Assembly: GCF_016026235.1 (NCBI RefSeq)
Contig: NZ_CP065613.1
Origin: Escherichia coli
GTDB lineage: Bacteria; Pseudomonadota; Gammaproteobacteria; Enterobacterales; Enterobacteriaceae
Reading direction: 5' to 3' (one strand)
Length of the DNA stretch: 64,000 nucleotides
Shown: piece after piece, positions 16,246 to 60,751 of the stretch
Layout: every line of letters starts with the position of its first letter
Numbering within the stretch: position 1 is the first letter of the stretch
Program-made: the position numbers and the translations under genes
Notes under the pieces: generated by a model
Seen by the model: only the letters and a program-made list of their open reading frames with translations
What the model was told of the DNA's origin: nothing
The model's database searches: none

Positions 16246-16335
16246 TTGTTTAAAGCCCCCACGTCCATTAATAATGCATTTGCATTACTTTGCTGAAGCT
16301 TATAATTTGAGCAGAAAACAGGCTGTAAAAGTACA

Positions 16336-16668
16336 GTGCCTAATGCCCGCTCTCACGCTGTACTGACCACTGAATCAAAGGTCACGATACGCGGACAAAC
16401 AACTATCCCCGCGCCAGTGCGTGAGGCCTTAAAACTGAAGCCAGGCCTGGACAACATTCATTACGAAATTCTGCCTGGTGGGCAAGTATTTATGTGCCGA
16501 CTGGGAGATGAACAGGAGGATCATACTATGAATGCATTTTTGCGTTTTCTGGATGCAGATATCCAGAACAACCCGCAAAAAACTCGTCCATTCGACATTC
16601 AACAAGGAAAGAAACTTGTCGCTGGCATGGACGTCAACATTGATGATGAGATTGGCGACGACGAATAA
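16336..16668 (+). CDS. prlF: type II antitoxin / transcriptional autoregulator PrlF (AbrB/SpoVT-like)
   Basis: 110-aa ORF with GTG start, acidic C-terminus DDEIGDDE; stop overlaps next ATG (TAATG). Confidence 0.85.
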   Translation: MPNARSHAVLTTESKVTIRGQTTIPAPVREALKLKPGLDNIHYEILPGGQVFMCRLGDEQEDHTMNAFLRFLDADIQNNPQKTRPFDIQQGKKLVAGMDVNIDDEIGDDE

Positions 16669-17132
16669 TGGATTTTCCACAAAGGGTTAATGGTTGGGCG
16701 CTATATGCTCATCCCTGTTTTCAGGAAACCTACGACGCTTTAGTTGCCGAAGTCGAGACATTAAAGGGAAAAGATCCTGAAAATTATTAGAGAAATGCCG
16801 CCACAAAGTTATTGGCAGCAGTTCACAAAGTGATTGAGGAGCATATCACGGTCAATCCATCATCACCGGCATTCCGTCATGGCAAGTCGTTAGGCTCTGG
16901 GAAAAATAAAGACTGGTCACGGGTAAAATTTGGTGCTGGTCGTTATCGTCTCTTCTTTCGTTATAGTGAAAAAGAGAAAGTCATCATTCTGGGATGGATG
17001 AACGATGAAAACACGCTGCGCACCTACGGTAAAAAAACAGATGCCTATACCGTATTCAGCAAAATGTTAAAAAGAGGACATCCTCCTGCCGACTGGGAAA
17101 CCCTCACCCGAGAGACAGAAGAAACCCATTGA
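16668..17132 (+). pseudogene. yhaV: YhaV ribonuclease toxin reading frame interrupted by in-frame TAG at codon 41 (16788..16790)
   Basis: ATG at 16668 gives MDFPQRVNGWALYAHPCFQETYDALVAEVETLKGKDPENY then TAG, then 113 further in-frame codons without stop. Confidence 0.7.
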
Positions 17133-22131: not shown

Positions 22132-23261
22132 CACACGTTCTGCGCGCCAGAAGGCTGCTGACTGAAGAGGGATGGCTCGATGACCATCAGTTGCGTATTG
22201 CTGACGGTGTCATCGCAGCAATCGAACCGATTCCAGTGGGCGTGACTGAACGCGATGCGGAACTGCTCTGCCCCGCTTACATCGACACCCATGTACACGG
22301 TGGTGCGGGCGTTGATGTAATGGATGACGCGCCGGATGTGCTCGACAAGCTGGCAATGCACAAGGCACGCGAAGGTGTCGGCAGTTGGTTACCGACTACC
22401 GTAACCGCGCCGCTTAATACCATTCATGCGGCGCTGAAACGTATTGCGCAACGTTGCCAACGCGGCGGACCTGGTGCGCAAGTGCTGGGGAGTTATCTCG
22501 AAGGACCGTACTTCACGCCGCAGAATAAAGGCGCGCATCCGCCGGAGTTGTTTCGCGAGCTTGAAATTGCCGAGCTGGATCAATTGATTGCCGTTTCTCA
22601 GCACACCTTACGCGTGGTAGCGCTGGCACCGGAAAAAGAGGGGGCATTGCAGGCCATCCGCCATCTTAAACAGCAAAATGTACGAGTGATGCTGGGGCAT
22701 AGCGCGGCGACCTGGCAACAAACTCGCGCCGCGTTTGATGCTGGTGCCGACGGCCTGGTGCATTGCTATAACGGGATGACAGGTTTACATCACCGCGAAC
22801 CGGGAATGGTTGGCGCGGGATTAACGGACAAGCGCGCCTGGCTGGAACTGATAGCCGATGGTCATCATGTGCATCCGGCGGCGATGTCGCTGTGTTGTTG
22901 CTGTGCGAAAGAGAGAATCGTGCTGATCACCGACGCGATGCAGGCAGCCGGGATGCCGGATGGTCGCTATACGTTATGTGGCGAAGAAGTGCAGATGCAC
23001 GGTGGCGTTGTCCGTACCGCGTCCGGTGGGCTGGCGGGCAGTACGCTGTCTGTTGATGCGGCAGTGCGCAATATGGTCGAGTTGACGGGCGTAACGCCTG
23101 CGGAAGCCATTCATATGGCATCGCTGCATCCGGCGCGAATGCTAGGTGTTGATGGTGTTCTGGGATCGCTTAAACCGGGCAAACGCGCCAGCGTCGTTGC
23201 GCTGGATAGCGGGCTGCATGTGCAACAAATCTGGATTCAGGGTCAATTAGCTTCGTTTTGA
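22128..23261 (+). CDS. agaA: N-acetylgalactosamine-6-phosphate deacetylase (full length)
   Basis: ORF track 22107..23261; ATG at 22128 gives 377 aa, MTHVLRARRLL. Confidence 0.85.
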   Translation: MTHVLRARRLLTEEGWLDDHQLRIADGVIAAIEPIPVGVTERDAELLCPAYIDTHVHGGAGVDVMDDAPDVLDKLAMHKAREGVGSWLPTTVTAPLNTIHAALKRIAQRCQRGGPGAQVLGSYLEGPYFTPQNKGAHPPELFRELEIAELDQLIAVSQHTLRVVALAPEKEGALQAIRHLKQQNVRVMLGHSAATWQQTRAAFDAGADGLVHCYNGMTGLHHREPGMVGAGLTDKRAWLELIADGHHVHPAAMSLCCCCAKERIVLITDAMQAAGMPDGRYTLCGEEVQMHGGVVRTASGGLAGSTLSVDAAVRNMVELTGVTPAEAIHMASLHPARMLGVDGVLGSLKPGKRASVVALDSGLHVQQIWIQGQLASF

Positions 23262-25639: not shown

Positions 25640-25733
25640 TCATTAGTTTTTTATGATTTATCCCAATGTACTTCCCGATTAATATCGGGGAGTGCCTTAA
25701 TGGAAAAGGAGATGACTAAACCTTAATAAATAC

Positions 25734-25742
25734 ATCAGTACA
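25734..25742. repeat. left copy of 9-bp target-site duplication ATCAGTACA
   Basis: Identical 9-mer directly abuts both IS1 ends. Confidence 0.9.
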
Positions 25743-25757
25743 GGTAATGACTCCAAC

Positions 25758-26261
25758 TTATTGATAGTGTTTTATGTTCAGATAATGCCCGATGACTTTG
25801 TCATGCAGCTCCACCGATTTTGAGAACGACAGCGACTTCCGTCCCAGCCGTGCCAGGTGCTGCCTCAGATTCAGGTTATGCCGCTCAATTCGCTGCGTAT
25901 ATCGCTTGCTGATTACGTGCAGCTTTCCCTTCAGGCGGGATTCATACAGCGGCCAGCCATCCGTCATCCATATCACCACGTCAAAGGGTGACAGCAGGCT
26001 CATAAGACGCCCCAGCGTCGCCATAGTGCGTTCACCGAATACGTGCGCAACAACCGTCTTCCGGAGACTGTCATACGCGTAAAACAGCCAGCGCTGGCGC
26101 GATTTAGCCCCGACATAGCCCCACTGTTCGTCCATTTCCGCGCAGACGATGACGTCACTGCCCGGCTGTATGCGCGAGGTTACCGACTGCGGCCTGAGTT
26201 TTTTAAGTGACGTAAAATCGTGTTGAGGCCAACGCCCATAATGCGGGCAGTTGCCCGGCAT
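25758..26261 (-). CDS. insB: IS1 InsB (transposase C-terminal part, made as InsAB' by -1 frameshift)
   Basis: 167-aa [25 protein letters not shown]... Confidence 0.9.
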
Positions 26262-26455
26262 CCAACGCCATTCATGGCCATATCAATGATTTTCTGGTGC
26301 GTACCGGGTTGAGAAGCGGTGTAAGTGAACTGCAGTTGCCATGTTTTACGGCAGTGAGAGCAGAGATAGCGCTGATGTCCGGCGGTGCTTTTGCCGTTAC
26401 GCACCACCCCGTCAGTAGCTGAACAGGAGGGACAGCTGATAGAAACAGAAGCCAC
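26180..26455 (-). CDS. insA: IS1 InsA (transposition inhibitor / transposase N-terminal part)
   Basis: 91-aa [43 protein letters not shown] (zinc-finger + HTH). Confidence 0.9.
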
Positions 26456-26510
26456 TGGAGCACCTCAAAAACACCATCATACACTAAATCAGTAAGTTGG
26501 CAGCATCACC

Positions 26511-26519
26511 ATCAGTACA
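26511..26519. repeat. right copy of 9-bp target-site duplication ATCAGTACA
   Basis: Identical to 25734..25742. Confidence 0.9.
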
Positions 26520-53762: not shown

Positions 53763-53936
53763 ATCTTCTGCGCATCCTCGCGACTAATGACAACCCTAAC
53801 CCAGCTCTATGTGGGTAAAGCCTCTCATTAGCCGCGCGAACCTCTGCAACGGAAGATCATTCATAGCAACAATACATTAGTTTCCAGTGAATTGCTGCCG
53901 TCAGCTTGAAAAAAGGGGCCACTCAGGCCCCCTTTT
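53763..53936 (+). ncRNA. sraG: small RNA SraG (PsrO), antisense to the pnp leader
   Basis: Position between rpsO and pnp on opposite strand, recalled from K-12 annotation; + strand hairpin ggggcc-actca-ggcccc followed by T-run at 53915..53936. Confidence 0.4.
53909..53936. terminator. bidirectional rho-independent terminator (rpsO on minus strand)
   Basis: aaaaaaggggccactcaggcccccttttct. Confidence 0.7.
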
Positions 53937-53952: not shown

Positions 53953-54318
<366 letters not shown>

Positions 54319-55789: not shown

Positions 55790-55875
55790 CGTTGGCCTGA
55801 TAAGACGCGCCAGCGTCACATCAGGCAATCCATGCCGGATGCGGCGTAAACGCCTTATCCCGCATGGAACCCTAA
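55790..55875. repeat. REP-like palindromic elements
   Basis: ggcctgataagacgcgccagcgtcacatcaggc and gccggatgcggcgtaaacgccttatcccgcatgg. Confidence 0.6.
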
Positions 55876-60545: not shown

Positions 60546-60606
60546 GCCCACCCCCAAGACATAAAAAAAGGGCCTAAAGCCCAGTTATTCTGTAGTCAGA
60601 TAACAA

Positions 60607-60631
60607 AAAACCCCGATAAATCGGGGCTTTA
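60607..60631 (-). terminator. hairpin between metY and rimP (operon leader attenuator)
   Basis: ccccga-taaa-tcgggg with A6 run (T-run on minus strand). Confidence 0.5.
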
Positions 60632-60751
60632 TATAACTGAACCCTATAACCGCAACTGCGGTCTGGAGCACTTTCCAGAAGGATTTTTTCAAATCCCACT
60701 ACGAAGGTCGAAGTCTTCACAGTATATTTGAAAAAGGACTCTAAGGGAAAG

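Follow-up and report, generated by a model that had tools for sequence, protein, structure and literature searches.

The PrlF(SohA)–YhaV pair of Escherichia coli K-12 is said to have been described as a type II toxin–antitoxin (TA) system by Schmidt et al. in 2007 and Choi et al. in 2017. YhaV is presented in the literature as a RelE-type ribosome-dependent mRNA endonuclease and PrlF as an AbrB-type antitoxin, the two proteins jointly autorepressing their operon (PMC8546651, PMC11980606, PMC12107188 citing Schmidt 2007). Loss-of-function alleles of yhaV have been selected repeatedly in K-12 chemostats, through IS insertions and through frameshifts of 2 bp and 11 bp, and a frameshift truncating YhaV at 38 amino acids had the same fitness effect as the full deletion of the gene (PMC5960147). 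In the prlF1 allele, a repeat-mediated duplication of 7 bp close to the 3′ end of the gene alters the regulation of the operon: the C terminus of PrlF is truncated and YhaV is live, the operon is derepressed, and Lon is hyperactivated (PMC12107188).

We analyzed a 64-kb window of E. coli DNA (the whole stretch of 64,000 nucleotides) and focused on its garD–prlF–yhaV–agaR region, which retains the gene order of K-12. The two genes of the module are adjacent and co-oriented, with the prlF stop overlapping the yhaV ATG in the sequence TAATG at 16666–16670, and they have the architecture of a TA module, with a single promoter-like site upstream and an inverted repeat over its −35 element. The locus shares with the K-12 system its genomic position, the TAATG overlap, 98.3% nucleotide identity in yhaV, and the Toxin_YhaV and PrlF_antitoxin domains, and by descent it is a member of the PrlF–YhaV family. 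It differs from K-12 in having a yhaV broken at codon 41, a mutated Shine–Dalgarno (SD) sequence of prlF, a promoter spacer lacking 1 bp, and a prlF ATG that a 10-bp deletion has put out of frame. In a functional TA system both partners are expressible; here, the reading frame of the toxin is broken and the start of the antitoxin is displaced.

The early truncation of YhaV, after 40 amino acids in the haplotype of the window, resembles that of the chemostat alleles with their 38 amino acids. The latter leave prlF in place and arose within hundreds of generations of nitrogen or magnesium limitation (PMC5960147), whereas the window allele is natural, old, and widely distributed, and is accompanied by further lesions. 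Similarly, the deletion in prlF that we describe below is, like prlF1, a small repeat-mediated change in the length of the gene; unlike prlF1, it lies at the 5′ end, where it affects the initiation of translation, and the toxin was already dead.

Throughout, allele counts are exact matches to short diagnostic sequences among 5,426 complete E. coli genomes, and both SD energies (anti-SD duplex) and promoter scans are consensus estimates. The 465 bases of yhaV had a match in 5,152 of the 5,426 genomes, at 96 to 100% identity. The nearest complete genome, FDAARGOS_943, has an identical yhaV and is 99.9% identical over 25 kb; across the 64 kb, 30 SNPs separate it from the window, and the structural differences number only three: the 10-bp deletion in prlF, an indel of 1 bp in agaA, and the insertion of an IS1.

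An Amber Codon Interrupts yhaV

An earlier note, made from the letters of the window and a list of its open reading frames, had reported a premature stop in yhaV. We retranslated the frame and obtained the same structure: starting at ATG 16668 on the plus strand, 40 codons (MDFPQRVNGWALYAHPCFQETYDALVAEVETLKGKDPENY) are followed by TAG at 16788–16790 and by 113 more codons before the stop at 17130–17132. The 5′ fragment, amber codon included, occupies 16668..16790 and the untranslated remainder, codons 42 to 154 plus the stop, 16791..17132 on the same strand. The gene differs from that of K-12 DH1 at eight positions. A C-to-T change at nucleotide 121 of the gene turned the CAG of Gln41 into TAG, A-to-T at nucleotide 129 gave K43N (AAA to AAT), and T-to-C at nucleotide 152 gave V51A; the other five are synonymous, three of them falling within nucleotides 150–159. 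Comparison with DH1 thus bears out both the CAG that the earlier note had given for K-12 at codon 41, from which a single change leads to TAG, and its suspicion that the residue two codons on, now Asn in place of Lys, differs as well.

When the TAG is translated as Gln, residues 12–150 align to positions 1–137/138 of the Toxin_YhaV model (PF11663; RelE/ParE superfamily) with an E value of 3.4e-54. The gene is a Toxin_YhaV member by descent, and with the frame through the domain interrupted at codon 41, it is now a pseudogene. As translation stops after 40 residues, covering about a fifth of the Toxin_YhaV domain, no YhaV toxin should be made. A search of solved structures with the YhaV sequence returned nothing relevant, its sole match being a spurious one to ThreeFoil.

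The TAG Allele Is Old and Widespread

To count carriers, we used a diagnostic 71-mer (16760–16830) that covers the TAG together with five further bases specific to the haplotype. This sequence was found unchanged in 170 of the 5,426 complete genomes, while its CAG-reverted version had no exact match in any complete genome, the TAG carriers surfacing at one mismatch. The carriers include BL21, BL21(DE3), BL21-Gold(DE3), BLR(DE3), C41/C43(DE3), NEB C2566/C3029, REL606, and ATCC 8739, as well as O145:H28, O169:H41, and assorted wild isolates. In all seven that we opened (FDAARGOS_943, PT62, O145:H28 RM13514, BLR(DE3), "strain C," REL606, and ATCC 8739), PGAP marks yhaV as a pseudogene with an "internal stop," and at least 1000 contigs of public assemblies encode the 40-amino-acid N-terminal product. 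The TAG is real, old, and widespread, and it is already annotated in RefSeq; it is neither private to the window nor new. The earlier note had considered that reference alleles might carry the same TAG together with a functional restart downstream: the TAG is indeed present in reference strains of the B lineage, but a functional restart was not found. Literature searches on the B-strain allele (yhaV with BL21 or REL606, pseudogene) gave nothing on the allele itself.

The haplotype of the window is identical to that of E. coli B (REL606, BL21(DE3)), ATCC 8739, O145:H28, and O169:H41 from the promoter through yhaV codon 53, and the shared part includes the TAG, K43N, V51A, and the SD mutation. 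Beyond it, sublineages have diverged. BLR(DE3), REL606, and ATCC 8739 have a second stop in yhaV, W10 (TGG) having become TGA, along with R85W; the B lineage and ATCC 8739 differ from the window in these two changes and in having another yhaV 3′ end. A 76-mer with the codon-10 stop had an exact match in 97 complete genomes, BL21(DE3), REL606, ATCC 8739, and ATCC 11303 among them. O145:H28 has a recombinant yhaV 3′ end, and PT62 carries A44S in YhaV and D40Y in PrlF. The opened carriers of the B type, ATCC 8739, and O145:H28 keep the full prlF start, in contrast to the window with its 10-bp deletion.

No genuine intact ancestor of the TAG haplotype was found among the complete genomes or by exact look-ups of "repaired" YhaV proteins. 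The look-ups retrieved three proteins. One is an apparently intact YhaV with Q41, N43, and A51, and all four contigs behind it, metagenome contigs from ENA, carry the TAG: the metagenome gene caller had translated the TAG as Gln on short contigs and so produced a phantom intact protein. The other two come from K-12-like or recombinant haplotypes.

The Haplotype Extends over the Promoter and the prlF Ribosome-Binding Site

A column-by-column comparison of alleles showed that the TAG-bearing block spans from ~16289 to 16826. Within it, the promoter spacer has lost 1 bp and acquired three substitutions, and two more changes follow, G-to-T at 16332 and AA-to-CC at 16339–16340; the coding sequences carry S41N in PrlF, Q41*, K43N, and V51A in YhaV, and synonymous changes. 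Consensus scans of the window and K-12 DH1 placed a promoter-like site for prlF–yhaV, TTTGCA-16 nt-TATAAT, at 16279..16306 on the plus strand. The spacer is 17 nt in K-12 and 16 nt in the window, and both the loss of 1 bp and the substitutions, at 16289, 16293, and 16295, are specific to the TAG haplotype. The −35 hexamer is overlapped by the inverted repeat TAATGCA-TT-TGCATTA (16272..16287, plus strand), alternatively seen as a tandem pair of TGCATT units, which is a candidate PrlF/YhaV operator. The repeat is invariant in the compared alleles with the exception of GCA_021349815.1.

The G-to-T change at 16332 hits the former SD sequence of prlF (16329..16333, plus strand), which reads AAGTA in the window and AAGGA in K-12 and SMS-3-5. 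The anti-SD duplex was estimated at −5.3 kcal/mol in K-12 and SMS-3-5 and at −0.4 kcal/mol in the window, FDAARGOS_943, and BLR(DE3). The exact 5′ part of the block was present in 173 complete genomes, compared with the 170 carrying the TAG 71-mer plus two pigeon strains with A44S, meaning that the linkage between the 5′ haplotype and the TAG is essentially complete. With linkage of this kind, the SD and promoter changes may have come before or after the TAG.

The changes defining the haplotype are clustered, with eight in 54 bp (16289–16342) and six in 39 bp (16788–16826), and most of prlF between the two clusters and the remaining yhaV are unchanged. The clusters could be small gene-conversion patches or reflect relaxed constraint on functional elements.

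A 10-bp Deletion Displaces the prlF Start

The earlier note had taken prlF to be intact. This was contradicted when the window was aligned to five genomes, the two closest carriers of the TAG among them: 10 bp are missing at the 5′ end of the gene (reference CCTAATGCCCGCTAATGCTCGCTCTCAC, window CCTAATGCCCGCTCTCAC) and ATG 16343 is out of frame, in addition to the SD sequence being mutated across the haplotype. The deletion junction (16347..16348, plus strand) lies between imperfect tandem repeats, TAATGCCCGC/TAATGCTCGC, and the bases lost amount to one unit of this imperfect 10-bp tandem repeat; imperfect tandem repeats are a classic substrate for slippage. The canonical ATG now opens a 7-codon ORF, MPALTLY-stop (16343..16366, plus strand), while the present prlF frame runs for 110 codons from GTG 16336 (16336..16668, plus strand), which is its sole in-frame opening in the ORF list. 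A canonical ATG with an SD sequence, as in all other compared alleles, is lacking in the window.

Among the 5,132 complete-genome records matching the region, none has the 10-bp deletion, the best full-length match of 88.4% reflecting the gap. In draft assemblies, the deletion is found on about 24–48 contigs; the 24 that we read, from 48 index blocks, fall into three context groups and come from independent NCBI and SRA samples. We opened one locus per context group, and the TAG was present in all three. The absence of the deletion from complete genomes and the presence of the TAG in all three representatives indicate that the TAG preceded the deletion, and the mere 30 SNPs and three structural differences separating the window from FDAARGOS_943 indicate that the deletion arose recently, in a background that already shared the TAG. 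One representative, GCA_021349815.1, combines the deletion with a B-like yhaV 3′ end and with a third TGCATT unit in the operator/−35 repeat (equivalent to 16274–16287). As the deletion is found next to this 3′ end, it has either recurred or moved by recombination; the contig suggests that the deletion spread through independent events or by recombination and that the operator was remodeled further.

We considered whether PrlF persists from GTG 16336 as a functional orphan antitoxin and autorepressor, lacking Ala3, with its toxin dead. Initiation at the GTG would give a protein starting MPNARSH instead of MPANARSH, and the loss of Ala3 is the sole difference between the 110-amino-acid product and the haplotype protein WP_001300560.1. 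The product matches PF15937 (PrlF_antitoxin, AbrB/SpoVT-type) in the precomputed Pfam data, and exactly this protein is present in NCBI under the name PrlF, given by PGAP. With the frame open and a single residue lost, PrlF may still be made at some level. Moreover, WP_001300560.1 is identical in six divergent TAG carriers among which yhaV varies; PrlF is thus possibly still kept in most carriers, a hint that may speak against its free decay. On the other hand, neither start of the window has an SD sequence: the anti-SD duplex is −2.6 kcal/mol, with bulged pairing, at GTG 16336 and −0.4 kcal/mol at the ATG, against −5.3 kcal/mol in K-12. The out-of-frame ATG 16343, only 7 nt downstream of the GTG, competes for initiation and should capture ribosomes for the 7-codon ORF. 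Full autorepression requires YhaV as a co-repressor (PMC12107188 citing Schmidt 2007), so that PrlF alone would at best be a weaker regulator, and the second deletion-bearing lineage, GCA_021349815.1, has an altered operator repeat. Taken together, a functional orphan seems to us possible but rather unlikely in the window clone, whose PrlF is probably a weak hypomorph or null.

Farther inside prlF, ATG 16528 (codon 65; 16510–16530) is preceded by AGGAGG at ideal spacing, with a duplex energy of −10.3 kcal/mol. The motif is far stronger than the gene's own SD sequence and would yield a 46-amino-acid C-terminal PrlF peptide; either an internal start or a site of ribosome pausing could be located here.

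The Module Has Probably Decayed in Steps

The type II TA module at garD–prlF–yhaV–agaR is very probably decaying step by step, and in this respect our data agree with the interpretation given in the earlier note. In a first step, codon 41 of YhaV became TAG on a divergent prlF–yhaV haplotype, abolishing the toxin. As a second step, the same haplotype lost the prlF SD sequence and 1 bp of the promoter spacer; the two losses together probably lower the output of antitoxin. In a third step, with the toxin gone, sublineages gathered lesions of their own, W10 to TGA and R85W in the B lineage and, in the window clone, the slippage-type 10-bp deletion that puts the prlF ATG out of frame. The cell would tolerate such damage to the prlF start, as no toxin is left to neutralize. 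More generally, a dead toxin would make the antitoxin unneeded and, given the loss of YhaV as co-repressor, its expression signals could be free to degrade or even be selected to do so.

The last possibility can be taken further, the secondary lesions being compensatory rather than random drift and forming an ordered, selected series of dismantling steps. Loss of the co-repressor would then derepress prlF, and selection against surplus PrlF would favor the SD mutation, the shorter spacer, and the recurrent 10-bp deletion. In the three loci opened, the deletion was seen solely on toxin-dead backgrounds and on two yhaV 3′ backgrounds. We nevertheless consider a selected series unlikely.

Residual Toxin Activity Is Very Unlikely

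The first two in-frame start candidates after the TAG, TTG 16812 and GTG 16830, could in principle give a nuclease-active C-terminal YhaV fragment of 100–106 amino acids. Catalytic residues of RelE-type toxins are usually found in the C-terminal part, and a 100-amino-acid ORF has been called mechanically on 278 contigs, under YhaV-type names and with a match to PF11663. Yet no SD sequence was found before TTG 16812 or GTG 16830, where the anti-SD duplexes are −0.4 and −1.8 kcal/mol, respectively, as the earlier note had also judged in seeing no credible restart, and a product from either codon would lose the first ~30% of the Toxin_YhaV domain. The R85W of the B lineage falls within the fragment, the window clone tolerates damage to the prlF start, and the K-12 frameshift, for which the same downstream ORF is available, acts as a clean deletion (PMC5960147). 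An active restart fragment is thus very unlikely, and the inactivation of the toxin proposed in the earlier note is well supported by a frame ending at codon 40, a domain spanning residues 12–150, and no SD-backed restart.

Read-through of the amber codon, natural or by a suppressor tRNA, is extremely unlikely as a source of full-length, active YhaV. A suppressor tRNA-Gln would bring back the Gln41 of the wild type, but the only tRNAs within the 64-kb window are tRNA-Met and tRNA-Leu(GAG), and of the 155 complete genomes in which glnV is of the supE44 type, every one of the 60 listed is a K-12 laboratory derivative with the CAG allele; the suppression that the earlier note had raised as an alternative is supported by neither. 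Furthermore, the TAG persists in 170 genomes of unrelated lineages, 97 of them with an extra TGA at codon 10, which is unexpected for a gene in use, and a cell still producing toxin would be harmed by a damaged prlF start. Finally, short indels in repeats are a known class of sequencing error, but an artifact of sequencing or assembly, also raised in the earlier note, can be set aside for the TAG, which recurs in 170 complete genomes from many laboratories, and has a negligible probability for the deletion, whose product is found on 24 contigs in three context groups with representatives differing in their yhaV 3′ ends.

Consequences for Annotation and Other Features of the Window

The yhaV TAG allele is already known at the level of annotation, and the deletion at the prlF start is a small addition to it. 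The allele has consequences for the use of common strains: BL21(DE3), REL606, and ATCC 8739 are without functional YhaV, and counts of active toxins and interpretations of yhaV transcripts made for K-12 are not transferable to them. A preprint with RNA-seq data from REL606 lists YhaV among the active toxins (10.1101/2023.02.05.527212). Homology-driven annotation calls the 110-amino-acid, GTG-started PrlF a normal antitoxin and thereby hides the out-of-frame canonical start, and some metagenome calls reading TAG as Gln add seemingly intact but phantom YhaV entries to public collections of proteins. The locus itself neatly illustrates, in nature, the order in which a TA module is expected to decay, with the toxin lost first and the antitoxin after it.

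Elsewhere in the window, an Rfam scan gave matches at 9558–9934, 53765–53936, 54166–54280, 55794–55864, and 60563–60663; these comprise rnpB (RNase P RNA), SraG, the S15 leader, naRNA4, and the rimP leader, all of them expected neighbors and nothing unusual. In agaA (nagA according to PGAP), the window has one extra A at 22183 in comparison with FDAARGOS_943; as the copy in that genome is flagged "frameshifted," the copy in the window is probably the intact one. An IS1 of 768 bp (25743–26510, within 25733–26519) that is absent from FDAARGOS_943 lies between kbaY and agaB. The element has 23-bp terminal inverted repeats, its minus strand carries the ORFs of InsA and InsB, and a target duplication of 9–10 bp, CATCAGTAC(A), accompanies it; the insertion may be polar on the downstream agaBCDI.
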